Positions 2-13,072 of a stretch of 13,072 bases of DNA are shown one piece after another. The translations under genes and the position numbers were made by a program. The stretch's first letter is position 1, and each line of letters starts with the position of its first letter. The notes beneath the pieces were generated by a model. That model did no database searches. It saw only the letters and a program-made list of their open reading frames with translations, and was not told the origin of the DNA. Source of the stretch: a virus (lineage: Duplodnaviria > Heunggongvirae > Uroviricota > Caudoviricetes); IMG/VR virus record IMGVR_UViG_2671180405_000011. The stretch is one strand, 5' to 3'.

Positions 2-319
2 CTGCTTAAAAAAAGAACAAATGGTAGTGTCCGCTATTGCCAGTACACCTCAGAGTTTTACACCACAACCCGCAAACCCTCTGCGGGAGATGTTGGTGCA
101 TATACGCAGGCAGAATGTAACTCAAGGTTTATTACAGGTATTCGCCTTGGTGGTCTGTTATCTGTTCAGACATGGAATGGTCCCGGATGGTCTGACAGGT
201 CAGGTTATGTTGTTACCGGTTCCGTTAACTCAAACAGAGATGAACTAATTGATACAACTCAGGCAAGGCCAATTCAGTATTGCATTAATGGGACGTGGTA
301 TAACGCGGGGAGTATTTAA
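2..319 (+). CDS. Tail fibre protein, C-terminal end of the currently expressed variable domain (Sv); 5' part lies outside the window
   Basis: Frame ending at TAA 317-319 translates to ...GYVVTGSVNSNRDELIDTTQARPIQYCINGTWYNAGSI*. Its C-terminus parallels the minus-strand segment 1413-2441 (...[12 protein letters not shown]). The stop lies 2 nt before the chaperone start, as in Mu S-U and P2 H-G. Confidence 0.75.
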   Translation: MLKKRTNGSVRYCQYTSEFYTTTRKPSAGDVGAYTQAECNSRFITGIRLGGLLSVQTWNGPGWSDRSGYVVTGSVNSNRDELIDTTQARPIQYCINGTWYNAGSI

Positions 320-321
320 CG

Positions 322-855
322 ATGATGCACTTAAAAAACATTTCTGCTGGTAATCCTGAAACAAAAGAGCAATACCAGCTAACGAAACAATTTAACATCA
401 AATGGCTTTATACAGAGGATGGGAAAAACTGGTATGAGGAACAAAAGAACTTTCAGCCTGATACGTTGAAAATGGTCTATGACCACAACGGCGTTATTAT
501 TTGTATTGAAAAGGATGTTTCAGCAATTAATCCGGAAGGCGCAAGCGTCGTTGAGGTTCCTGATATTACAGCAAATCGCCGGGCTGATATTTCAGGTAAA
601 TGGATGTTCAAAGATGGCGTAGTGATAAAGCGAACTTATACCGGGGAAGAGCAGAGGCAACAAGCGGAAAATGAAAAGCAAAGCCTGCTACAGCTCGTCA
701 GGGATAAAACCCAGCTATGGGACTCACAGCTACGGCTGGGCATTATTTCCGACGAGAATAAACAAAAATTAACCGAGTGGATGCTCTATGCGCAGAAGGT
801 CGAATCCACAGACACCTCCAGCCTGCCAGTAACGTTTCCCGAACAACCAGAATGA
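322..855 (+). CDS. Tail fibre assembly chaperone (Tfa / Mu U / P2 G family)
   Basis: 177-aa ORF immediately after the fibre stop. It shares the N-terminal ~125 aa with the minus-strand paralogue (MMHLKNI.AGN...[24 protein letters not shown]) and differs in the C-terminus, which is the typical Tfa architecture. Confidence 0.85.
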   Translation: MMHLKNISAGNPETKEQYQLTKQFNIKWLYTEDGKNWYEEQKNFQPDTLKMVYDHNGVIICIEKDVSAINPEGASVVEVPDITANRRADISGKWMFKDGVVIKRTYTGEEQRQQAENEKQSLLQLVRDKTQLWDSQLRLGIISDENKQKLTEWMLYAQKVESTDTSSLPVTFPEQPE

Positions 856-858
856 AAC

Positions 859-886
859 AAGGCCCGATATCGGGCCTTAATTTTTA
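859..886. terminator. Palindromic hairpin with T-tract between convergent chaperone genes (likely bidirectional terminator)
   Basis: Perfect 20-bp palindrome aaggcccgatatcgggcctt (859-878) followed by aattttta; sits between the stop of 322-855 (+) and the stop of 884-1411 (-). Confidence 0.5.
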
Positions 887-1411
887 CTCAGGCTTTTGTG
901 GCCATTCTGGCTTTGCCGTATCCACACGGCTGACCAGAACACTGTAGCGTTCCCATGCTTCCAGTCGTGTGCGTTCCTCGTCCGTCGCCATATTCAGCCT
1001 GACAGCGCGTTCCAGCGGCTGGATGACTGATTCAGCTTCGGAAAGCAATGCGGCCTTTTGTGATTCGGCCTGTTGTTGCTGTTCGTCAGCCGTATAAATC
1101 CGTTTAACCACAGCTCCGTCCTTAAACATCCACTTACCGGAATCATCAGCACGACGATTAGCTGTAATATCAGGAACCTCAACGACGCTATAACCTTCAG
1201 GGTTAAGCGTGGAGGCATCTTTGGTGATGGCGACAATAATATTATTTGCATCGTAAACAATCTTTATTGTGTCTGGCTGAAAGTTCTTCACTTCCTCATA
1301 CCAGTTTTTTCCGTCCTCAGAGTAAAGCCAGATGACTCCGTGCTTCTTTGTTAACTCATACTGCTCCACTGTTTTAGCATTACCTGCTTTTATGTTCTTT
1401 AAGTGCATCAT
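884..1411 (-). CDS. Alternative tail fibre assembly chaperone (U'-like), inside the invertible segment
   Basis: The minus-strand ORF is listed to 1444, but the homologous start [11 protein letters not shown] is the ATG at 1411, 1 nt after the TAA of the upstream Sv' segment (TAATATG). This mirrors the plus-strand Sv/U junction. Confidence 0.8.
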
Positions 1412-1412
1412 A

Positions 1413-2441
1413 TTAAATACTCGCCACATTATACCAAGTGCCATTTATATACTTTTGCACTGGCCTGTAATGAACGCCTGCAATATTATCGGCAGAGTTT
1501 TTTCCGGTATCCTGTACGTTAATCCCCGTCAGTACATAGCCTGACGGGCACTGAAAATTCCATGTTTGCCAGTTGTTCACTCCATAATATTGCTGTGAAC
1601 CAAGTCGAACATCTTTCACATATCTGGAATCAAAATTGCCATAGTTGCCGGGAATAACTTGCGAGCCGCAAAGCCAGTTCCCGTTATTATCCATGTACGC
1701 CTGACCATCGGTGCCATTGGCTGTCCTTGAGTTATTAATCATGTAGATGCCAAATTGCTTATTTCCCAGACCGCCAATCATAAATTTGCGGTCGGCATGG
1801 TCCTGACGGAGCAAAGCCTGAGCACCATCAGTGGATACCGCATTACGTCCCAAAATAACATTCTGGTCACGCATATGAATCCACATGCCGGTACTACTGT
1901 TAATTGCAAAACGGTTTGCAAATATATCCCCTGTAACATCAAGACCATGCCCCATGCTTATCCGGCCAGTTCTGAGATTAAGCGTAAAGGGGCGTAGTGG
2001 CCCTATATTACCATTTTCCCCTTCATTCTCTCGTGTAGGGATGATATGCAGGCATTCTTCAGAACGACGAAAAATGGCACCAAAAGATGAATTAAATATC
2101 CTCAGTGCATTGACTGTCGATATTTTCACTTCACTGCTGAAAAGGGCTTCAACAAGAACAGACAAAGCATTCCATTTAAGATTCATCAGGTCTTTAGGCC
2201 GGGTGCCAATGATGCGGTGTCTCCATTTGAAATATTCATTGCCGTTGTTGCCTGTTTCAAACCACATGTAGGAATCGGTGTCTGCATCCGAATTATTTTT
2301 AAACCCAATCTTTGCCCAGTCAGTATTTCGAATCCAGGCAAGGATTGAGTCGTTTTCAAAAGTAAGTCCACCGGACAACGTATCGCCATTTTTTTGCACG
2401 GCGTTACCAGCCTTGTTTACCGTTTCCTGTAAACCGAGGTT
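1413..2441 (-). CDS. Alternative tail fibre C-terminal segment (Sv'-like), start-less cassette expressed only after inversion
   Basis: Minus-strand frame is open from 2441 with no proper ATG (listed start is GTG). It ends ...[12 protein letters not shown], paralogous to the plus-strand fibre C-terminus, and the frame opens just inside the crossover site. Confidence 0.75.
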
Positions 2442-2449
2442 TTAGATAA
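2424..2449. other. Serine-invertase crossover site (gix/hix/pix-like), right end of invertible segment
   Basis: ttcctgtaaaccgaggttttagataa: a 26-bp imperfect palindrome with 12-bp half sites around a central GA, closely matching recalled gix/hix sites. It lies about 55 bp upstream of the invertase start. Confidence 0.7.
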
Positions 2450-2503
2450 TGGCCGTTTCCGGCCTGCATGGCATGATTTGCGCTTTTGGACGGGAGATTC
2501 AGC

Positions 2504-2760
2504 GTGCTGATTGGCTATGTAAGGGTATCAACAAATGACCAGAATACAGACCTGCAACGAAACGCTCTTGTTTGTGCAGGATATGAACAAATATTTGAAG
2601 ATAAATTAAGCGGAACAAGGACAGGCCGACCTGGATTAAAACGTGCTTTAAAGCGCCTTCAAAAAGGTGACGCACTGGTTGTCTGAAAACTGGACTGACT
2701 GGGTCACTGTATGCGGCATCTTGTCGTGCTGGTGGTGGAAGCCTAGAAAAAGTATCGGGT
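2504..2760 (+). pseudogene. DNA invertase remnant (Gin/Pin/Hin/Cin family), inactivated
   Basis: GTG 2504 with SD gggaga, then MLIGYVRVSTNDQNTDLQRNAL... identical to the intact copy for about 80 bp. Scattered substitutions follow, TGG becomes TGA at 2684-2686 (W to stop), then further in-frame stops and weak residual similarity (LD*LGHCMRHLVVLV vs LDRLGRSMKHLISLV) to about 2760. Confidence 0.7.
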
Positions 2761-2844
2761 GTTGCTGAACCGTGTTGATACATCAACTGCACCTGATATT
2801 GAGTGGCCTACGAACCCTGTCAGGGAGTAATCATTGGGATTATG

Positions 2845-2877
2845 CCGCAGCACGTCTTAAGCAAGAACGTGCTGCGG
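2845..2877. other. Perfect 10-bp stem hairpin (ccgcagcacg / cgtgctgcgg, 13-nt loop), possible terminator
   Basis: Lies 8 nt beyond the methyltransferase stop (minus strand) and is followed on the plus strand by a T6 run at 2888-2893. There is no immediately adjacent U-tract on either strand, so terminator function is uncertain. Confidence 0.3.
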
Positions 2878-2884
2878 TTGGATG

Positions 2885-3532
2885 CTATTTTTTCCCTGAA
2901 GCGGAAAACATTACTACAGTACCTTGAACCCTGGTTTTAACATTCTCGAAATGCTCTGAGAGTATATGTGTTAAGCCTTCTTCGGAATCTTTTGTGTTTG
3001 AAAAGATGCCTTTCTGATTGTAAATGCGCATCAGTTTTTGACCGAAGCTATTGTGCACAACTCCATCGCCAAGAATTGTGGCTCCGTATAGAGTTCCATC
3101 GTCAGTTAAGGCCTGCGCCGCATTGCGTATTACACAGCTTTTTGTAGATATATTTCCAGGCAGGCAGTGAAGAAGGTAAAACATGGAAATGGAATCAAAT
3201 TGACCATGTAACGCCGCGGGATAAGGTTCAAAAACATCATGGCTAATTTTATGTTTAATTTTTGATTCCCCAGCCCTTGTAGATGCCGCGTTCAGGCTAG
3301 CTTCGTTCAAATCCATTAAAGATATCAGACTACTCTCAGGTACGTGAGTAAGGTAAAACCCAGTTCCAACACCAATATCCAGATGGTTGTTACCTAAATG
3401 TTCCAGAAAGTGTGGAAGAAGGTGTTCCTTTGTAGGACATCCCCATGCAAGCCGATTTGATACTCCCAAAACCCACCAGTCATAAAGCTTTAGGGTAAGT
3501 GGTGTGTAAATTTTAGCCCCATCATCTGTGTT
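2885..3532 (-). pseudogene. Class I SAM-dependent methyltransferase, 5'-truncated (small-molecule/RNA type, not an obvious DNA methyltransferase)
   Basis: Minus-strand frame is open from the repeat junction at 3532 to TAG at 2885-2887. It carries the Rossmann motif I LDIGVGTGFY and a post-I acidic/hydrophobic segment. There is no ATG with an RBS; the listed start is an internal TTG and the frame runs into the repeat, so the N-terminus is missing. The region is visibly AT-richer than its flanks. Confidence 0.6.
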
Positions 3533-3768
3533 TAGTGATAAAGCGAACTTATACCGGGGAAGAGCAGAGGCAACAAGCGGAAAATGAAAAGCAAAGCCTG
3601 CTACAGCTCGTCAGGGATAAAACCCAGCTATGGGACTCACAGCTACGGCTGGGCATTATTTCCGACGAGAATAAACAAAAATTAACCGAGTGGATGCTCT
3701 ATGCGCAGAAGGTCGAATCCACAGACACCTCCAGCCTGCCAGTAACGTTTCCCGAACAACCAGAATGA
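3533..3768 (+). pseudogene. Tail fibre assembly chaperone, C-terminal fragment (copy 2; lacks first ~100 codons)
   Basis: Identical to 619-855 of the intact chaperone gene. Identity begins abruptly at 3533; upstream sequence is methyltransferase, not chaperone. Confidence 0.7.
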
Positions 3769-3771
3769 AAC

Positions 3772-3799
3772 AAGGCCCGATATCGGGCCTTAATTTTTA
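3772..3799. terminator. Copy 2 of the palindromic hairpin with T-tract
   Basis: Same sequence as 859-886, offset 2913. Confidence 0.45.
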
Positions 3800-4324
3800 C
3801 TCAGGCTTTTGTGGCCATTCTGGCTTTGCCGTATCCACACGGCTGACCAGAACACTGTAGCGTTCCCATGCTTCCAGTCGTGTGCGTTCCTCGTCCGTCG
3901 CCATATTCAGCCTGACAGCGCGTTCCAGCGGCTGGATGACTGATTCAGCTTCGGAAAGCAATGCGGCCTTTTGTGATTCGGCCTGTTGTTGCTGTTCGTC
4001 AGCCGTATAAATCCGTTTAACCACAGCTCCGTCCTTAAACATCCACTTACCGGAATCATCAGCACGACGATTAGCTGTAATATCAGGAACCTCAACGACG
4101 CTATAACCTTCAGGGTTAAGCGTGGAGGCATCTTTGGTGATGGCGACAATAATATTATTTGCATCGTAAACAATCTTTATTGTGTCTGGCTGAAAGTTCT
4201 TCACTTCCTCATACCAGTTTTTTCCGTCCTCAGAGTAAAGCCAGATGACTCCGTGCTTCTTTGTTAACTCATACTGCTCCACTGTTTTAGCATTACCTGC
4301 TTTTATGTTCTTTAAGTGCATCAT
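3797..4324 (-). CDS. Alternative tail fibre assembly chaperone (U'-like), copy 2
   Basis: Translation identical to 884-1411. Confidence 0.75.
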
Positions 4325-4325
4325 A

Positions 4326-5354
4326 TTAAATACTCGCCACATTATACCAAGTGCCATTTATATACTTTTGCACTGGCCTGTAATGAACGCCTGCAATATT
4401 ATCGGCAGAGTTTTTTCCGGTATCCTGTACGTTAATCCCCGTCAGTACATAGCCTGACGGGCACTGAAAATTCCATGTTTGCCAGTTGTTCACTCCATAA
4501 TATTGCTGTGAACCAAGTCGAACATCTTTCACATATCTGGAATCAAAATTGCCATAGTTGCCGGGAATAACTTGCGAGCCGCAAAGCCAGTTCCCGTTAT
4601 TATCCATGTACGCCTGACCATCGGTGCCATTGGCTGTCCTTGAGTTATTAATCATGTAGATGCCAAATTGCTTATTTCCCAGACCGCCAATCATAAATTT
4701 GCGGTCGGCATGGTCCTGACGGAGCAAAGCCTGAGCACCATCAGTGGATACCGCATTACGTCCCAAAATAACATTCTGGTCACGCATATGAATCCACATG
4801 CCGGTACTACTGTTAATTGCAAAACGGTTTGCAAATATATCCCCTGTAACATCAAGACCATGCCCCATGCTTATCCGGCCAGTTCTGAGATTAAGCGTAA
4901 AGGGGCGTAGTGGCCCTATATTACCATTTTCCCCTTCATTCTCTCGTGTAGGGATGATATGCAGGCATTCTTCAGAACGACGAAAAATGGCACCAAAAGA
5001 TGAATTAAATATCCTCAGTGCATTGACTGTCGATATTTTCACTTCACTGCTGAAAAGGGCTTCAACAAGAACAGACAAAGCATTCCATTTAAGATTCATC
5101 AGGTCTTTAGGCCGGGTGCCAATGATGCGGTGTCTCCATTTGAAATATTCATTGCCGTTGTTGCCTGTTTCAAACCACATGTAGGAATCGGTGTCTGCAT
5201 CCGAATTATTTTTAAACCCAATCTTTGCCCAGTCAGTATTTCGAATCCAGGCAAGGATTGAGTCGTTTTCAAAAGTAAGTCCACCGGACAACGTATCGCC
5301 ATTTTTTTGCACGGCGTTACCAGCCTTGTTTACCGTTTCCTGTAAACCGAGGTT
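4326..5354 (-). CDS. Alternative tail fibre C-terminal segment (Sv'-like), copy 2
   Basis: Translation identical to 1413-2441. Confidence 0.7.
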
Positions 5355-5362
5355 TTAGATAA
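5337..5362. other. Serine-invertase crossover site (gix/hix/pix-like), copy 2
   Basis: ttcctgtaaaccgaggttttagataa, identical to 2424-2449 and in the same (direct) orientation. Confidence 0.7.
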
Positions 5363-5416
5363 TGGCCGTTTCCGGCCTGCATGGCATGATTTGCGCTTTT
5401 GGACGGGAGATTCAGC

Positions 5417-6004
5417 GTGCTGATTGGCTATGTAAGGGTATCAACAAATGACCAGAATACAGACCTGCAACGAAACGCTCTTGTTTGTGCAGGATGTGAA
5501 CAAATATTTGAAGATAAATTAAGCGGGACAAAGACAGACCGACCGGGATTAAAACGCGCTTTAAAGCGCCTTCAAAAAGGTGACACGCTGGTTGTCTGGA
5601 AACTGGATCGCCTCGGGCGAAGCATGAAACATCTGATTTCTCTCGTCGGGGAACTACGGGAGCGAGGAATTAATTTTCGCAGTCTGACCGACAGCATAGA
5701 TACATCTTCTCCAATGGGGCGTTTTTTCTTCCACGTGATGGGTGCCCTGGCTGAAATGGAACGTGAATTAATTGTTGAACGTACACTGGCCGGACTGGCG
5801 GCAGCACGCGCACGGGGGCGCACAGGCGGACGTCGACCGAAGCTGACAAAAGAACAGCATGAGCAAATAGCAAGGCTGATCAAAAACGGGCACGACAGAA
5901 AACAACTGGCAATAATTTACGGCATTGGTATATCGACGATTTATCGTTACCACCCCGCAGGAGAATCAATCGGAACAATAGAGAAGAGTCAGGAAACAAA
6001 ATAA
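5417..6004 (+). CDS. Site-specific DNA invertase, small serine recombinase of the Gin/Pin/Hin/Cin family (intact)
   Basis: GTG 5417 preceded by SD gggaga. N-terminus MLIGYVRVSTNDQNTDLQ carries the catalytic Ser; VVWKLDRLGRS, SPMGRFFFHVMGALAEMERELIVERT and a C-terminal helix-turn-helix (GGRRPKLT...) follow. It sits immediately downstream of a gix-like site, as Mu gin and e14 pin do. Confidence 0.9.
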   Translation: MLIGYVRVSTNDQNTDLQRNALVCAGCEQIFEDKLSGTKTDRPGLKRALKRLQKGDTLVVWKLDRLGRSMKHLISLVGELRERGINFRSLTDSIDTSSPMGRFFFHVMGALAEMERELIVERTLAGLAAARARGRTGGRRPKLTKEQHEQIARLIKNGHDRKQLAIIYGIGISTIYRYHPAGESIGTIEKSQETK

Positions 6005-6036
6005 CCGCTAATCTGACCATTAGCGGTTTTTGTGTT
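6003..6036. terminator. Bidirectional rho-independent terminator between convergent invertase and gpU genes
   Basis: Stem aaccgctaat / attagcggtt with loop ctgacc, followed by ttttgtgtt on the plus strand and by TTATTTT on the minus strand. Confidence 0.6.
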
Positions 6037-6039
6037 AAA

Positions 6040-6528
6040 TCAGAACAACCCTTTAACTGAACTGGCCGCGCTGTTAAGGGATGATGTTACCTTATCTTTG
6101 AAGCCGGACAGCATATCGCTGAACGATGAGGATTGCAGGCGCTCCCGCAAATCCTCATCACAGCGTTCAAGAGTCAGTGAAAATTCTATCTTTTTCGCCT
6201 TACCGTAGCGATCAAACTCGGAGCGGGTCGTATTCGTTTCGGTCAGGACATACATGCCGTAAATCTGCCCGACGCCATCAATCAGAGGCCAGGGTCGTCC
6301 TGTATACGCCTGCGTGGTCAGCAGCGACAGCGACACTTCGCCACCTGTAATTTCAGGATAAAGCACACCAGAAAGAACGATGCGCTCATCACCTGCACCG
6401 ATATACTGCCAGCTTGCCGAACGGTTAACGCGTTCATTTTTCACATGCCGCCAGCTTTTGTTTTGCTGTAACTGCTGATGCGGCAATGTACGCAGCTCAA
6501 AAACAAACATGCCGTAGATCATCATCAT
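6040..6528 (-). CDS. U: Phage tail protein gpU (P2 U family)
   Basis: Matches recalled P2 gpU: short N-terminal Met run, then GxFVF...SWRH...RVNRS...GVLYPEITGG...LIDG. The listed ORF starts at 6534, but SD GAGGAG spacing favours the third ATG at 6528. It follows T on the same strand. Confidence 0.85.
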   Translation of the reverse strand: MMMIYGMFVFELRTLPHQQLQQNKSWRHVKNERVNRSASWQYIGAGDERIVLSGVLYPEITGGEVSLSLLTTQAYTGRPWPLIDGVGQIYGMYVLTETNTTRSEFDRYGKAKKIEFSLTLERCDEDLRERLQSSSFSDMLSGFKDKVTSSLNSAASSVKGLF

Positions 6529-6540
6529 GGCCATGACTCC

Positions 6541-9357
6541 TCAATCTTTATCGTAAAAACTGCCACGCCCGGCACGGGCGCGCCGTTCCATTTCTGCCCT
6601 GACCATTTCACCGACCAGTTTCGCCAGTTCGCGGGGATTCTGCGTAACAACGTTATGCAGATGAACATGAATTTCACCACCAAATCCGGAGGCAACAGGC
6701 TCCCGGTTACGGGAAGTTACAGGAACTGATGCCACTGGAGAGCGTATGGCCTCCGCCACCGGGCGGGAGCTGGCCGCAACAACAGGGACCAGCGCCGGAG
6801 GCAGCGGAGCCGGGACCACGGGTGTGATATTAATTGCGGGGGCAGGCTTACTGACCTGCGCAATCTTCCGCTCCTGCCACTCCCCACGAACAGCAAGTGC
6901 GCGGGGCAGGTTCTTAAAGACAATATCGCCGGGGCCAATGCGTTTTTTCGTCTCATCAACCAGCTTACCTGTGTTATCAGCAATTTTGCTGAGTCTGCGT
7001 AGCGTCCCGGTATTGCTGTCTGTGAGCGGTTTGTTGTCTTTGGGTTTATCACCTCCGGTGCCATTGCCATTTTCCACAGGCTTCGGCGGATTGATTTTCG
7101 CCAGGTCCCCCTGAAGCAAGGCAACCTTGTCCTGAAGAATGGCCGCACGCTGTGCGTCTTCGATTTTCTTGCGCGCCCTTTCCGCTTCATCCGGAAGGAC
7201 GCCAAGTTTTTCAAGTATCCACGCCAGCGTATCCAGTAGCATTTTTGCAGGTGTCAGAACAAGTTGTAACGCACCGCCAAGAACGTTACCGAATATCTCG
7301 CCAGCACTGGCACATTTATCCAGCGTTTCCTTGCTGGACTCCATCGGTGACAGCAGCGATTTAAACCAGTTAAAGACCTGAATAATCCCATCGCGCACGA
7401 CATCAAAAACAGGGCCAAACCGTTCAAAGGTTTCGCGCAACGGGGTCAGCCTTTCCATAATCCCGCTGAACACCCCGGCAAAAAATGCCCTGATGGGATC
7501 CCAGTATTTCCAGATAAGAACGGCAGCTCCGGCAAGCGCAGCCACGATAAGACTAACCGGACTGAACAGCGCCCCGATAGCGCCACCAAGTAAAGAAACG
7601 GAACCCGTCACCATTCCCCATAATGCAGGCAGAACCCTGACAACATTCATTGATTCGGTCAGGAGAGAAAAACCGAGACGCAACGTAGCCAGCTTCCCGT
7701 GAAGCACCCCAATAACCAGAGACAACGAACCAACCGTTGCTGTTGTCGCCAGCAGTGCGCCTCCCGCTATCAGTAACTGGCGCGTCAGTGCCGGGTGGGC
7801 CTGCGCCAGCGCCGTCACCTTTGAGACAACCCGCGTGAGCCACTGCGTGACAGAACGCAGCGGACCGTCAACCAGATCACTGATGCGAATACGCAGACCT
7901 TCCCATGCACTGCCGAGTGATTTCAGGTTGCCATCAAGGTTATTGGCCATAACCTTTGCCGTGCGTTCTGCCTCACCGCGCGCGCCTTCAAGTTCTTTTC
8001 TCAGTTTGGCTAAGAAGCCGTCACCTGCCGCATCAACGAGGCCCATAAATGATGTGAAAGCCTCTTCTCCGGCAATGTCCTTAAAGAACGATACCCGGTC
8101 AACCTCCCCGTATTTGCGGGTGGCTTTATAGAGATCGGCCAGCACATTCTCCATCGGGCGCATTTTGCCTTTGGCGTCAGCAACTGACACCCCCAGCTCT
8201 TTCAGTGCTTCTGCCGCTGCCTTTGGCGGTGATGACAGATTGGCCAGGCTTTTACGCAACGCTGTACCTGCATCACTCCCCCTGATACCCATCTTCGCCA
8301 GCACGCCCGCCATCGCTGCGGCCTGCTCCAGCGATATTCCCAGCTTACCCGCCACCGGACCTGCATATTTCATGGTTTCGCCCAGTGCGCGAAGGTCAGT
8401 GTTGGTACGGGTAAACGCTGCGGTAAGTGTGTCACCGACCCGGTCCATCTGGTCAGCAGAGAGGCCGAACTGCGTCAGGATATTGGAACCAATATCCGCC
8501 GTCTCGCCGAGGTCCATACCGCCAGCCGTTGCCATGCTCAGCACGCCGGGAAGCGCAGCCTGAATGGCCTGCGGTGTGAAACCAGCCATTGCAAGAAATG
8601 CCTGTCCACTGGCGGCATCGCCTGCGGTGAACTGCGTTTCAGAGCCAAGTTTTAACGCCTGCTCACGCAGCGCCTTAAACTGCGGGCTGTTTTTATCGAT
8701 TCGCGTCAGTGCCTGAACACGGGACATCTCTTTCCCGAACCCGATAGCGGGCTGCAAAAAACGCCCGGCAGCATAGCCGCCCGCTGCCGCCGCACCTGTT
8801 GCCAGCGCACCACCTGTTTTCAGTTTTCCCGCTGTTTCCTGCGCGCGTGAATACCGCTCACGCGCCTGCGTTACACGCGCAAGCGCCCGCCGTTCGCGTT
8901 CAAGCTGGTTGTTGTATTGTCCGGTGCGTCTGATGGCCTGCTGGATGGTGTTATCGCTGCCTGTCAGGGAAATGCCGTGGCGTTTCAGCTCTCCGCCAAG
9001 TTCCCGCATTTTCTGAATTTCCCGTGTGCGCGATTCATTCAGGCGTTCAAGCCGGGTGCTTAACTGCTGCATCAGCTTTTGTTGTTTTTCGCTGAGCACT
9101 GTACCCGTGCGTTGTAACTGATTAAGGGCGTTAAGCTGGCGTCGTGCTTTCACGATGCCCGCATCCGCTTTACTGACAGCGTCACGGGCGCGCTCAAATG
9201 AACGCGCCTGACGCTCGAGATTTTTGATCGCCCCCTGCGTTCGCTGGATGGAGTCACCAAACTGCCCCATCAGGCGGCGGGCGTTTTCGGCAGGCCGGGT
9301 CAGCCTGTCAACGGCGCTGAAAGCGACCCGGATATCAAGAGTCTTCATTGTCTGCAT
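6541..9357 (-). CDS. T: Tail tape measure protein (P2 gpT-like)
   Basis: About 940-aa ORF rich in Ala/Gly/Leu with coiled-coil N-terminal third and hydrophobic central segments. It sits between E/E' and U as in P2. The start is ambiguous (GTG 9384, ATG 9357 or ATG 9348). Confidence 0.85.
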   Translation of the reverse strand: MQTMKTLDIRVAFSAVDRLTRPAENARRLMGQFGDSIQRTQGAIKNLERQARSFERARDAVSKADAGIVKARRQLNALNQLQRTGTVLSEKQQKLMQQLSTRLERLNESRTREIQKMRELGGELKRHGISLTGSDNTIQQAIRRTGQYNNQLERERRALARVTQARERYSRAQETAGKLKTGGALATGAAAAGGYAAGRFLQPAIGFGKEMSRVQALTRIDKNSPQFKALREQALKLGSETQFTAGDAASGQAFLAMAGFTPQAIQAALPGVLSMATAGGMDLGETADIGSNILTQFGLSADQMDRVGDTLTAAFTRTNTDLRALGETMKYAGPVAGKLGISLEQAAAMAGVLAKMGIRGSDAGTALRKSLANLSSPPKAAAEALKELGVSVADAKGKMRPMENVLADLYKATRKYGEVDRVSFFKDIAGEEAFTSFMGLVDAAGDGFLAKLRKELEGARGEAERTAKVMANNLDGNLKSLGSAWEGLRIRISDLVDGPLRSVTQWLTRVVSKVTALAQAHPALTRQLLIAGGALLATTATVGSLSLVIGVLHGKLATLRLGFSLLTESMNVVRVLPALWGMVTGSVSLLGGAIGALFSPVSLIVAALAGAAVLIWKYWDPIRAFFAGVFSGIMERLTPLRETFERFGPVFDVVRDGIIQVFNWFKSLLSPMESSKETLDKCASAGEIFGNVLGGALQLVLTPAKMLLDTLAWILEKLGVLPDEAERARKKIEDAQRAAILQDKVALLQGDLAKINPPKPVENGNGTGGDKPKDNKPLTDSNTGTLRRLSKIADNTGKLVDETKKRIGPGDIVFKNLPRALAVRGEWQERKIAQVSKPAPAINITPVVPAPLPPALVPVVAASSRPVAEAIRSPVASVPVTSRNREPVASGFGGEIHVHLHNVVTQNPRELAKLVGEMVRAEMERRARAGRGSFYDKD

Positions 9358-9864
9358 TCCCGCTGCGAAGTGCCGCCCGCTCACGCCAGCTAACCACTTC
9401 GCCGGGCGTCATCATGAAGATTTCGGCGGGCGACCAGTTAAAAATGGCGGCAATATCCGCCACAAAGTCTTCTATGTGCTCAAAGCACACAACCGTGATC
9501 AGGCTTCCGTCGCCTGTTCGTTCTTCTCGCCAGAGTCCGCACCGCTCAAAAAATTTACGGCAACCACACATAACTGAATAAAGTCACGGGATGCCATTTT
9601 TTTGATCGTCACTTCATCCAGTCGCGGTGATGTCACGCGTGACAGCAGCGTAAACATGGATTCCGCTTTCAAATTCAGCACATCAGACAGCGACAAATCT
9701 CGCAGAGATCCAGCCTGCTCAATAGCCCCGGTGATCTCCACATACGTGATTTTTTCGCCGCCTCGCTCAATTGGTTGGGTAAGTTTTACGCCACGCTCAC
9801 TGGTTTCTTTCACAGTGTCAGCAACGACCGTGTTTTCGGTATCGATGTTTTTCGTCTCTTTCAT
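9335..9864 (-). CDS. E+E': gpE+E' fusion chaperone made by programmed -1 ribosomal frameshift
   Basis: Slippery heptamer T TTT TTG on the minus strand (plus coordinates 9547-9553) in the E frame (AAT TTT TTG). The -1 frame then stays open for about 70 codons (ERCGLWREERTGDG...NADNEDS*) to 9335, overlapping the start of T, as with P2 E/E' and lambda G/GT. Confidence 0.7.
9499..9864 (-). CDS. E: Tail assembly chaperone gpE (zero-frame product)
   Basis: ATG 9864 with strong SD AAAGGAG at 7-nt spacing; 121 aa ending ...ASRDFIQLCVVAVNFLSGADSGEKNEQATEA, between tube and tape measure genes. Confidence 0.8.
   Translation of the reverse strand: MKETKNIDTENTVVADTVKETSERGVKLTQPIERGGEKITYVEITGAIEQAGSLRDLSLSDVLNLKAESMFTLLSRVTSPRLDEVTIKKMASRDFIQLCVVAVNFLSGADSGEKNEQATEA
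9547..9553 (-). promoter_or_regulatory. Programmed -1 frameshift slippery site (T TTT TTG)
   Basis: Plus strand reads caaaaaa; its reverse complement TTTTTTG is in X XXY YYZ register in the E frame. Confidence 0.65.
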
Positions 9865-9918
9865 CAGGAAACTCCTTTCAGTCAGAGGCGACGCACTGCG
9901 CCGCCTGCATATTACTTA

Positions 9919-10431
9919 TCAGCCAAGCCCGAGCGCGGAACGGATGCGATCGGGCACAATGTCCCTGCCGTCCTTCCGGTAAATGAAGTTCAGCAGGTCA
10001 ATCTCCCACAACGGGCGATCGTTAACACTCAGCTTGTAGTAGGTGTTTTTAATGGCGTAAGTGTGTGATGTGGCTTCGCCCTGTTTGGCTTCCCCCATAT
10101 CAATTTCCGTCACACGTCCGCGCATTTCGACTTCATACAGGTCGCTTTCAGCGTCGGTGTAGTATTCACCCGCAAAACGCAGCAGCGTACCGTCAATCGT
10201 GCCGCCATACTTAAGGAACAGCTCACGAACTGCGCCCCCCATGACAAAGCTCGCATCAAGCGCGGAGTCATCCAGGCCGAGATCAATACTTACCGCTCCC
10301 ATCATGCCACCACCCCGGTAGCTGTCGGTTTTGCGCGTCAGCTTAGGCAGAGTGACGGACGTCACCTTACCCACTTCGTTTTCACCATCCACAAACAGCG
10401 TAAAAAAGCGAAGATGTTTTGGTACAGCCAT
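9919..10431 (-). CDS. FII: Tail tube protein (P2 FII family)
   Basis: 170 aa with VTLPKLTRK...YRGGGM...IDLGLDD...GTIDG..LRFAG...VEMRGR, matching recalled P2 FII. Its start ATG overlaps the FI stop (TGATG), and SD GGGAGG lies upstream. Confidence 0.9.
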   Translation of the reverse strand: MAVPKHLRFFTLFVDGENEVGKVTSVTLPKLTRKTDSYRGGGMMGAVSIDLGLDDSALDASFVMGGAVRELFLKYGGTIDGTLLRFAGEYYTDAESDLYEVEMRGRVTEIDMGEAKQGEATSHTYAIKNTYYKLSVNDRPLWEIDLLNFIYRKDGRDIVPDRIRSALGLG

Positions 10432-11615
10432 CAGGCACCTCCCAGCACCGCAAATGCGGGACCAAAGAATTCATCAGTAAACGACTGGTAAAGCTCCATG
10501 TCTTCCAGCGGGGGAACAGGCGTATATTTGTAGCGAATACGCACGCGCCCCTGACGTAAATTCGTGGTGCCGTTATCCACCACGTCATACCAGCACGACG
10601 CCCCAATCAGTTTCCCGGCAGTAACCAGTGAATCCAGTTTTGCCCTGATGGCACCGATAACATCCTTCACGTTCGCAGGCGTCAGTGGACTGTCGATGGT
10701 TTCAAACTGCGCTTCCGCAATTGAATCAGCCAGCACCTGTGCGGTTCGGGTATACACCTCAAAGATGTAGGCGTTCGTTTCCGGTGTGCGGTTGCCCCAG
10801 AAGCGGAACCCGTTGCGACGAATAATGGTCGTGATTTCTTTGTTGTTGAGGCTGTTGGCATCACTGTCTTCGGCCTGCAACGACCAGAACACATGCCTGG
10901 ACATCCCCAGCACATTTTTAACCGGAACGTTGGACAGCGATTTGTGCCAGCCCTGCTCATGGTCAATGTACGCACGAAGGCCGCACGCATAGGCAGGCGC
11001 GGGGAACGTTTCGTTTTTGCCACTTTTCGGGTTGTAGGCGATGAAGTCCGGCCATAAGAGCATCACCTCACGTTCGTTGAATTTCTGGCGGTAGGTAATT
11101 GCCTCAGCCATCGTGTTACAGTCATGACATGAGGCATACACAAACGCGCGCAGTTTACCCGCAATCACGCACAGGGATTTTGTCACCGCCTCCGTGTCCA
11201 GCTCCGGCGCGGCCAGAATACGCGGACGGTATCCGATGCTTTCATCCTGCTCTGCAACAAGCAGCGCATACATCCCCGTATAGCTGCCGTCAGATTCAGA
11301 ACCACCGATAACCAGTTGATCCTGCGTTTTTCCGTCTTCTTCTTTGTGTTCAGCCACGCGAACGACGATCACCTTTGTGCTCACCTGGTCTGCGATGGCC
11401 TTAAGCGCACGATAAAGCGTCCCCGTTGTTCCGCATTTTCCCAGCACGTCATTGACGCGGGGCAGCAGTGTGGGCTTGTTCAGCGGGAACAGCTCCGCGT
11501 CCGCATCATCCGCCGTTGCCACGATACCGATAACGCTGGAATCAACATCGTTAATCGCTGTTACCAGGTCGGTATTTTCCGTAACACGGGCACCATGAAA
11601 ACGAGTTTCACTCAT
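10431..11615 (-). CDS. FI: Contractile tail sheath protein (P2 FI family)
   Basis: 394 aa with ...DADAE.FPLNKP...KLRAF.Y...WPDF...GLRA.IDHEQGWHK.LSNV...IRR.GFRFWGNRT...NYTRTAQV.AD...YDYTPVPPLE, matching recalled P2 FI. SD AAGGGG upstream of ATG 11615. Confidence 0.9.
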   Translation of the reverse strand: MSETRFHGARVTENTDLVTAINDVDSSVIGIVATADDADAELFPLNKPTLLPRVNDVLGKCGTTGTLYRALKAIADQVSTKVIVVRVAEHKEEDGKTQDQLVIGGSESDGSYTGMYALLVAEQDESIGYRPRILAAPELDTEAVTKSLCVIAGKLRAFVYASCHDCNTMAEAITYRQKFNEREVMLLWPDFIAYNPKSGKNETFPAPAYACGLRAYIDHEQGWHKSLSNVPVKNVLGMSRHVFWSLQAEDSDANSLNNKEITTIIRRNGFRFWGNRTPETNAYIFEVYTRTAQVLADSIAEAQFETIDSPLTPANVKDVIGAIRAKLDSLVTAGKLIGASCWYDVVDNGTTNLRQGRVRIRYKYTPVPPLEDMELYQSFTDEFFGPAFAVLGGA

Positions 11616-11772
11616 AGCTTCAACCCCTTGTATCCGTTAAATGATTCGGCAACAATCATCACCCACCACGCGCGTAATCTCACCCCTGCGCCATTCTCCC
11701 GCCACGGCGACAACAAAAAGCAGTAACCCCCTCCGCACGCACATGCGACCATGCCACACAGGGAGGGAGCAG

Positions 11773-12882
11773 ATGACCGACACCACCATGCAATTGCTCA
11801 GTCAGGGCACAGACCCCGTGAAAATGCCGGATTTTGATATTCTCGCGGAGGGTAAAACGCTGTCAGGCGTGGCAGAGCGCCTGATGAGCCTGTCACTGAC
11901 CGACAACCGGGGATTTGAGGCGGACCAGCTCACCATCACGCTGGATGATGCGGATGGTCAGTTGCAGCTACCGCCACGGGGCGCGCGCCTGACGGTTCTC
12001 ATTGGCTGGAAGGGAGAACCGCTGACAGAAAAAGGCACTTACATTGTTGATGAAATCGCTCACGAAGGACCGCCGGACAGGCTGACTGTTTCAGCCAGAA
12101 GCGCAGATTTTCGGGCTGAATTTAACGTTAAACGTGAGGTGTCCTGGCATGATGTGACCGTTGAGCGTGTGGTATCCGCCATCGCTCATCGGTATGGTCT
12201 GAAACCGCAAATCAGCGAAATGCTGATGGATATCGAAATCGACCACGCCGACCAGACCGAAGAAAGCGACATGTCCTTCCTTACGCGCATGGCGGAAATG
12301 CTGGGCGCAATCACCACGGTAAAAAGCGGTAATCTGTTATTCATCATGCCCGGTGGTGGCGTGAACGCACAGGGCCAGCCGTTGCCCTCGTTCGCCATCA
12401 CACGCAGCAGCGGCGATCGCCATCAGTTCCGCATTGCTGACCGCGAAGCGTATACGGGGGTACGCGCTTACTGGCTTGATCTTAATTACGGGAAAAAGAA
12501 AAAAGTCAGCGTGAAACGCCGCAAACCGTCAAAACCAAAAAAGGAGAAAAGCAGCAGCCGGGAAGGCGACTATATGGAAGGTGCGGAAGGCAACGTGTTT
12601 GTGTTACGCAAAACTTATCAGAACGAGCAGGCAGCAAGACGTGCAGCGGCGGCAAAGTGGCAGCAGCTACAACGCGGAGCCGCATCATTCTCCATCACAC
12701 TGGCGCATGGACGTGCAGAACTCTACCCCGAAATGCATGGCACGGTAACAGGATTTAAAAGCGAGATTGATAATCAGGACTGGATTATTGCAAAAGCCGA
12801 GCACACCATTGATAACAGCGGCTTTACCACGCAGCTTGAGCTTGAGGCAAAAATCCCGGAATGGATAGCAGAAACAGAGTGA
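11773..12882 (+). CDS. D: Phage tail protein gpD (P2 late control gene D family)
   Basis: ATG 11773 preceded by SD gggagggag. The 369-aa product has a Lys-rich low-complexity stretch and a C-terminus ...DNSGFTTQLELEAKI, consistent with recalled gpD. The longer listed ORF from 11641 has no RBS and a low-complexity N-terminus. Confidence 0.8.
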   Translation: MTDTTMQLLSQGTDPVKMPDFDILAEGKTLSGVAERLMSLSLTDNRGFEADQLTITLDDADGQLQLPPRGARLTVLIGWKGEPLTEKGTYIVDEIAHEGPPDRLTVSARSADFRAEFNVKREVSWHDVTVERVVSAIAHRYGLKPQISEMLMDIEIDHADQTEESDMSFLTRMAEMLGAITTVKSGNLLFIMPGGGVNAQGQPLPSFAITRSSGDRHQFRIADREAYTGVRAYWLDLNYGKKKKVSVKRRKPSKPKKEKSSSREGDYMEGAEGNVFVLRKTYQNEQAARRAAAAKWQQLQRGAASFSITLAHGRAELYPEMHGTVTGFKSEIDNQDWIIAKAEHTIDNSGFTTQLELEAKIPEWIAETE

Positions 12883-13072
12883 GCAACTTAAATGTATTAA
12901 CTCAGAACGGATCAACACACTCACAACATAGAGTCAATATAGCTGCTCGCTTTGTTCCAGCAAGGATGCCTATTTCTAAGGAAAAACAGAGCAGAAACAT
13001 ATGGTGTTTTCCTACCTGACATCAGGGGTGGTAGACTGGCCCCCTGAATCTCCAGACAACCAGTATCACTTA

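Follow-up and report, generated by a model that had tools for sequence, protein, structure and literature searches.

Organization of the locus in a P88-type tail region

The window, by which we mean the whole stretch of 13,072 nucleotides that was analysed, comes from a P2-like prophage of the P88 (Xuanwuvirus) type and covers its tail region. Phage P88 itself aligns with 5322-12893 at 96.5% identity and in the same gene order. The inverted block running from the sheath gene to gpU was considered as a possible rearrangement and ruled out, as the Xuanwuvirus/P88 order normally has it. Moreover, positions 50-2582 and 3533-13072 match at 100% prophages that adjoin pheST-ihfA in draft and complete assemblies, including Shigella sonnei 53G, and each of these identical prophages has one copy of the tail-fibre switch. 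The features that frame the locus are as follows.

1-52: terminal 52 nt of IS600 (IS3 family), a 100% match to IS ends annotated as IS600-family transposase, also matching contig L023 at 4417-4365
2-319, plus strand: 3' end of the tail-fibre variable exon (Sv) in expressed orientation, truncated by the IS; open frame with TAA at 317-319
322-855, plus strand: Tfa, tail-fibre assembly protein, 177 aa (Pfam Caudo_TAP, E = 7e-37)
884-1411, minus strand: Tfa', alternative tail-fibre assembly protein, 175 aa (Pfam Caudo_TAP, E = 2.5e-37)
1413-2436, minus strand: Sv', alternative tail-fibre C-terminal exon, promoterless, a 328-aa ORF reaching the crossover point
6040-12882: P88-like (Xuanwuvirus) tail genes, context of the locus; gpU, tape measure, gpE, tube and sheath on the minus strand, gpD on the plus strand
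13034-13072: end of a multicopy IS; identity with contig L014 ends at 13033, and 53G has an IS3-family transposase pair there

The window therefore has tail-fibre exons in mirror image, each with its own assembly gene, Sv/Tfa on the plus strand and Tfa'/Sv' on the minus strand. The 3' end of the Sv exon (2-319) matches its counterpart in the tail-fibre gene of Shigella sonnei-type P88-like prophages at 99.7-100% identity. In the related contigs L012 and L016, where the segment is flipped, it is Sv' that joins the constant part of this gene. The IS600 end breaks the variable exon at position 50, and natural P88-like loci align only from 50 rightwards. The sequence of the IS end at 13034-13072 occurs at 18,426 places in E. 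coli genomes; from its terminal sequence we take this element to be IS2. We also observed a perfect 20-nt palindrome, AAGGCCCGATATCGGGCCTT, between the convergent assembly genes at 859-878 and again at 3772-3791, which is probably a bidirectional terminator.

An exact repeat with two crossover sites and one intact invertase

Part of the switch is present twice in the window, as an exact direct repeat, called X here, in which 620-2582 equals 3533-5495 over 1963 bp at 100%. X contains half of a Tfa gene, Tfa' and Sv', together with the 26-bp crossover site and the initial 79 nt of an invertase frame.

620-2582: repeat copy 1 (X), identical to 3533-5495
3533-5495: repeat copy 2 (X), beginning in the middle of the Tfa gene
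2424-2449, plus strand: crossover site R1, gix-like, TTCCTGTAAACCGAGGTTTTAGATAA, with its central GA at 2436-2437
5337-5362, plus strand: crossover site R2, TTCCTGTAAACCGAGGTTTTAGATAA, a direct repeat of R1
5417-6004, plus strand: copy 2, intact Gin-family serine invertase, 195 aa (Resolvase, E = 1e-50; HTH_7, E = 2e-13)

The sequence TTCCTGTAAACCGAGGTTTTAGATAA occurs twice in the window against 0 occurrences expected by chance, and it differs by one mismatch from the Mu gix site adjoining gin. An inverted partner (L) site was not detected in the window, even at up to 8 mismatches. In natural relatives the partner lies at a distance corresponding to about 650 bp left of the window start; here it may have been displaced or lost via the IS600 end at position 50.

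Both invertase reading frames begin with GTG, at 2504 and 5417 respectively, and their first 79 nt are identical; the first mismatch between the two copies is at 2583 (A in copy 1, G in copy 2). An earlier note on this DNA had described the crossover site and the first ~80 bp of coding sequence as the same in both copies, and indeed the 1963-bp repeat covers the site and 79 nt of the frame. The protein encoded by copy 2 is 86% identical to Mu Gin and has the features of a serine recombinase, namely an N-terminal resolvase domain with Ser9 and a C-terminal HTH_7 domain.

Copy 1 is a short 5' fragment of an invertase gene

The invertase frame of copy 1 is followed by pieces of other genes.

2504-2743, plus strand: pinPsi, truncated invertase pseudogene; codons 1-60 intact, stops at 2684 and 2696, no HTH domain
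2744-2830, plus strand: C-terminal fragment of Tfa, fused in frame after the stub, ending ...DTSTAPDIEWPTNPVRE*; annotated by RefSeq in JJ1886 and EC958
2885-3532, minus strand: class I SAM-dependent methyltransferase, lacking its first 7 codons (Pfam Methyltransf_12/23/25)

Copy 1 represents only the 5' part of a Gin-family invertase gene, 240 nt long and corresponding to about 80 of the 195 codons. It had been described as a decayed invertase gene inactivated by a change of TGG to TGA at 2686, with further stops and a small deletion downstream. The TGG to TGA change is there (codon 2684-2686), as is a second stop (2696-2698), but the small deletion is not, since the two copies stay in register without gaps up to 2743; and the gene proved to be an ~80-codon 5' fragment fused to a fragment of a tail-fibre assembly gene. 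Over this ungapped stretch identity with copy 2 is 98.6% in 2522-2593, 92% in 2594-2683 and 58% in 2684-2743, while beyond 2743 the similarity is 27-30%, which is the random level. RefSeq annotates the stub in JJ1886 and EC958 as 'recombinase family protein, incomplete, missing C-terminus'.

The Resolvase match of copy 1 covers only profile positions 2-69 of 145, too little for an enzyme. With its stops, its partial Resolvase domain and no HTH domain, copy 1 can therefore serve only as a substrate in cis. Its codons 61-80 (2684-2743), the part that is 58% identical to both copy 2 and Mu gin, read ...MRHLVVLV..., which is Cin-like and not Gin-like, so the stub is a mosaic of two invertase lineages.

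In natural loci the methyltransferase has 222 aa and runs on past the position equivalent to 3533. These loci also have a second Tfa-type fragment after the methyltransferase (for example at 10304-10480 of contig L001). The presence of Tfa fragments on both sides of the methyltransferase points to repeated rearrangements at the locus.

A candidate Fis enhancer lies within the stub

Invertases of the Gin/Hin/Cin/Pin class depend on host Fis and on negative supercoiling, and the enhancers of Gin, Hin and Cin are bound by Fis at two sites 48 bp apart, as known from the literature of 1985-1989. In the GenBank record of P1 the Cin inversion enhancer is annotated at nt 19-90 of the cin coding sequence, and likewise in P7. 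Transferred to the window, this interval defines one enhancer equivalent in each invertase copy.

2522-2593: enhancer equivalent E1 (copy 1), from the P1 annotation, alignment with Mu gin and P1/P7 cin, and pattern scans
5435-5506: enhancer equivalent E2 (copy 2), without any difference from the aligned Mu gin nucleotides

The expectation that the enhancer would lie in the 5' coding region of the invertase, as in related systems, is thus borne out, nt 19-90 of P1 cin falling at 2522-2593 here. Over the first ~100 coding nt, the alignment shows Mu gin to be the same as copy 2, while copy 1, like JJ1886, differs only by G to A at 2583.

E1 has candidate Fis cores at 2526-2540 (TATCAACAAATGACC) and at 2574-2588 (GTGCAGGATATGAAC), both conserved in cin; across copies, the distal candidate core (2574-2588) reads GTGCAGGAT[A/G]TGAAC. 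The centres of the two candidate cores, at 2533 and 2581, are exactly 48 bp apart. The earlier note had proposed a scan for paired Fis motifs about 48 bp apart, and such a pair was found at both copies with the exact spacing. The centre of the first candidate core is 96.5 bp from the centre of the crossover site, in agreement with the native Hin arrangement, in which the enhancer is ~100 bp from the crossover site (PMC3798978). As far as the sequence tells, the stub therefore presents two putative Fis sites 48 bp apart, at about 100 bp from the crossover site and at the 5' end of an invertase gene.

The scan scored the Fis core features described in PMC4784862, namely G/C at +/-7, a pyrimidine-purine step at +/-3-4 and an A/T-rich centre. 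The paired core pattern with 48-bp spacing gave 3 matches in the window against 0.41 expected, and two of them are those of copies 1 and 2. On the contrary, the 15-bp degenerate Fis consensus taken alone was not enriched in the window (33 matches against 26.6 expected). Motif statistics were therefore dropped as a proof of Fis sites, and the enhancer assignment rests on homology to mapped or annotated enhancers.

The single difference between the copies within the enhancer, at 2583, is at +2 of the distal core, a degenerate position, and the A found in copy 1 raises the A/T-richness of the centre. This A is also the allele of the ST131 Phi4 locus (JJ1886), which demonstrably inverts. A third full match to the Fis consensus, GACCAGAATACAGAC, was seen between the two cores at 2537-2551 and 5450-5464; in JJ1886 it has C to T at +7.

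Copy 1 joins P88-type and Phi4-type DNA

We then compared the surroundings of the stub with complete and draft genomes. Positions 2395-3533 are 99.2% identical to E. coli JJ1886 (ST131), at a locus that ends a lambdoid prophage adjoining the trp operon and for which RefSeq gives an incomplete recombinase, a Tfa fragment and the 222-aa methyltransferase. This Phi4-type locus was found in at least 535 complete E. coli genomes, and an exact match to the 60-aa stub protein was obtained in 7,443 blocks of the assembly collection. Among the matches listed, the stub is always beside the tail-fibre module of a lambdoid prophage, with trp adjoining in 9/10.

Of the nine mismatches to JJ1886, five are found before position 2583. 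The natural Phi4-type contig nearest to the window, L008, shows no mismatch from 2482 to 3512, and at 2454, 2460 and 2481 it departs from the window, whose bases there are those of copy 2. The differences from L008 and from copy 2 bound the interval in which one type gives way to the other.

2482-2582: exchange interval of 101 nt in which the parents are identical, with P88-type DNA on its left and Phi4-type DNA on its right

Judged by these diagnostic bases, copy 1 is a hybrid whose P88-type part extends to 2481 or further and whose Phi4-type part begins no later than 2583. Invertase-mediated site-specific exchange was ruled out as its origin, since P88-type bases (2454, 2460, 2481) are found to the right of the crossover. 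Nowhere else do the two invertase loci share so long an identical run as in the enhancer-bearing stretch, which would be a natural spot for homologous exchange, or for merging in an assembly graph. In draft contigs with a Phi4-type locus (L007-L011), we also noted that all end at the equivalent of 3512 or 3528, 4-20 nt before the junction at 3532|3533 of the window.

This composition changes how the likeness of the two copies is to be read. The earlier note took copy 1 for a degenerate copy of the functional gene in which cis elements had been retained. Right of 2481, however, copy 1 is no simple decayed duplicate of copy 2 and has its origin in another lineage, which is widespread. Nor does the identity with copy 2 speak for retention or for selection: because it runs for 1963 bp through unrelated genes up to a recombination or repeat boundary, it is a by-product of the repeat edge.

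The Phi4-type segment inverts although its invertase is truncated

In JJ1886, 3.08 kb separate the site adjoining the stub from its partner, which lies in the gene for the side tail fibre. We built the flipped JJ1886 junction in silico (700 nt) and searched for it in 5,426 complete E. coli genomes. Results showed the JJ1886 orientation in 152 of these genomes (>=80% coverage) and the predicted flipped junction in 374, with 100% identity over all 700 nt in the best 40 of the 374. Both orientations were found among near-identical ST131 genomes and inside strain series: 4/0 differs from 4/1-1 and 4/4, and U12A from U13A-U15A, with the junction of U12A and U15A at identical coordinates and in different orientations. 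The Phi4 segment therefore flips on very short time scales despite its stub invertase. The P88-like segment is likewise present in both orientations in S. sonnei-type assemblies (L014, L017 and L020 versus L016, L018, L019 and L012).

One genome, NZ_CP082831.1 (E. coli SCAID WND1-2021), has the Phi4-type junction in both orientations at two distant places (H177, H223). Either the prophage region is duplicated in this genome or both alleles were taken into the assembly.

Trans inversion at a Phi4-type stub is already known, having been published for EC958. Forde et al. 2014 (PMC4134206) reported both orientations of the 3106-bp Phi4 segment in PacBio reads from one EC958 culture; they called the Phi4 invertase 'severely truncated' and deduced an enzyme acting in trans, probably that of the P88-like Phi1. 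The annotation of EC958 has an intact invertase in Phi1 and the stub (EC958_1582) in Phi4. Inversions in ST131 have also been described in an invertase-less prophage, 'Entero_BP_4795', as well as in invertase-encoding P88-like and phiE255-like prophages (bioRxiv 10.1101/2022.05.07.487787). The earlier proposal that the locus of the dead stub could be flipped in trans thus holds for the parental Phi4 locus, from the genome counts given above and from PMC4134206.

A dead invertase fragment with cis signals probably usable in trans

Taking these results together, we consider copy 1 to be the 5' fragment of a dead invertase gene, Phi4-type to the right of about 2482 and P88-type to the left, whose cis signals are usable in trans, and we give this reading a probability of roughly 0.75. 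In terms of mechanism, the DNA of copy 1 would keep all that is needed in cis, that is, the 26-bp gix-type site and a Fis enhancer ~97 bp away. A Gin-family invertase provided in trans, together with host Fis, would synapse R1 with an inverted partner in the tail-fibre gene, and the segment would flip. The enzyme could come from the intact copy 2.9 kb downstream or from another prophage. Copy 1 may itself invert in this genome, with its partner outside the window, beyond the IS600 insertion.

The enhancer of the stub is presumably the one used in this inversion. Enhancers of the Gin/Hin type also act from a distance in cis (PMC3798978), so the population data on flipping are no proof that it is the enhancer within the stub that serves; and as such distances are tolerated and E2 is only 2.9 kb away in cis, the own enhancer of copy 1 would be dispensable here.

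Copy 1 may also be inert in this genome, if the IS600 insertion or an associated deletion removed or moved the partner, leaving R1 unused and both site and enhancer without consequence. We regard this as a real, if tentative, possibility. The IS600 end (1-52) abuts the tail-fibre exon at 50, an inverted site is absent within the window, and the tail-fibre gene is disrupted, so that switching would give the prophage no phenotype. However, a simple IS insertion would leave the partner ~2 kb off on the same molecule, which is no obstacle to Gin-type systems, and the same stub is an active substrate in ST131.

The duplication may stem from assembly

The weight of copy 1 also depends on whether the arrangement exists as drawn, and it may not. 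The window looks like a whole short-read contig of a Shigella sonnei-like genome, from the IS600 end to the other IS end: it begins 52 nt inside IS600 and ends 39 nt inside a multicopy IS, as short-read contigs do, and short reads cannot resolve an exact repeat of 1963 bp. At the junction 3532|3533, the methyltransferase, minus its first 7 codons, abuts the Tfa gene midway along its length, and the microhomology between the two is 1 bp. This junction was absent from 5,426 complete E. coli genomes, GTDB representative genomes, IMG/VR and JGI metagenomes, and it was not found at natural Phi4-type loci, all of which run on into a full-length methyltransferase. In an exact-protein look-up, the two ORFs abutting the junction were elsewhere found at contig ends only. 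Similarly, the hybrid copy 1 is carried by no other assembly among those searched, and the left 3.5 kb of the window was found at >94% identity in no complete E. coli genome.

Homologous recombination with the natural Tfa fragment that follows the methyltransferase was ruled out as the source of the junction, since that fragment resembles 2733-2879 and not 620-855; the window also lacks the 5' end of the methyltransferase and the spacer, which counters the same idea.

From these observations, the duplication and the hybrid copy 1 could be products of assembly, either because an X->Y->X loop was walked once or because two loci were merged via the ~100-bp 5' region of the invertase. The true genome would then have a single P88-like locus with the intact invertase and, apart from it, a Phi4-type remnant or a small circular or variable-copy X-Y unit. 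Natural S. sonnei-type prophages, identical at 100% over 50-2582 and 3533-13072, are single-copy, and Forde et al. (PMC4134206) caution about artefactual duplications in exactly such regions. On the other side, 1 bp of microhomology provides no shared k-mer, so reads must hold the junction unless contigs were concatenated. The starts of draft contigs L012 and L013 coincide exactly with the equivalent of 620/3533, L013 spanning 620-2440 at 100% identity, and these independent starts fit a real fork in other isolates. An X->Y->X graph would also fit a tandem duplication, a variable copy number, or a chromosome with A-X-B plus a 2913-bp X-Y circle. An origin of the duplication in assembly appears less likely than not.

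Possible selection and a possible genuine double locus

Selection could have preserved the 5' end of the dead gene as an enhancer for trans-driven switching of the tail fibre. In favour of this, the identity of the stub to functional genes steps down from 98.6% in the enhancer to 92% over the following 90 nt and 58% over the final 60 nt; the stub is also very common, and its locus continues to flip. We nonetheless find such selection improbable. All observed copies share the truncation and the stops, as expected of one allele inherited by descent and not of independent retention; the 5' 100 nt are the most conserved part of intact genes too; and mosaicism (Cin-like codons 61-80, a recombinant 5' part) explains the stepwise identity better.

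Finally, X-Y-X could be real and have arisen via exchange in the enhancer-bearing 5' ends of invertase genes from two different prophages, giving one intact invertase with two direct sites and two enhancers, which we hold to be improbable. If it were true, the enzyme could invert a short or a long segment against a single partner, or excise a 2913-bp X-Y circle, keeping in mind that deletion between direct repeats is disfavoured in Gin/Hin-type systems. The graph loop could in that case be the trace of the X-Y circle or of copy-number variation, and the enhancer region would be a hotspot for the shuffling of tail-fibre modules between unrelated prophages.

Significance and comparison with known inversion systems

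The population data, with 152 versus 374 orientations among 526 complete genomes, confirm that a prophage remnant without an invertase can keep switching its tail-fibre alleles. What such a remnant requires is the 26-bp site and, presumably, a Fis enhancer inside the stub, while another prophage provides the enzyme. For annotation, these stubs are cis-acting elements and not junk; for assembly, the segments adjoining them give forks and spurious duplications. Furthermore, orientation differences among near-identical isolates carry no phylogenetic signal.

The closest known system is Phi4 of EC958 (EC958_1582; Forde et al. 2014, PLoS One 9:e104400), which shares with the window the crossover site, the 60-codon stub with its stops, the Tfa fragment and the methyltransferase. 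Unlike EC958, the window has P88-type DNA and not the Phi4 segment to the left of ~2482, and its methyltransferase is cut at 3533, where it abuts a second P88-like segment with the intact invertase. In EC958 the Phi1 and Phi4 prophages are ~0.5 Mb apart. A discussion of an enhancer inside the stub was not found in the sections of Forde et al. 2014 (PMC4134206) used here. What is added by the present analysis is the mapping of the enhancer within the stub, the 152:374 orientation count, and the recognition of the 'retained' identity as a recombination or assembly boundary.

The P88 tail module likewise has its invertase between the fibre genes and gpU, but its segment is single-copy and has no Phi4-type insert. 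With the Cin/C segment of P1 and P7, the window shares an enhancer within the first 90 nt, in which both Fis cores are conserved, and a homologous tail-fibre segment; however, DNA identity is only ~72%, and the P1 invertase reads towards the segment, with cixL at its 3' end. Mu, with its Gin/G segment, agrees fully with copy 2 in the first ~100 coding nt and in the spacing to the crossover; its site is one base off, and its alternative tail-fibre exons and assembly genes are arranged in the same way. In contrast to Mu, the window belongs to a P2-like host element (Xuanwuvirus/P88), the C-terminal third of its invertase differs, and it has two directly repeated sites and two enhancers.
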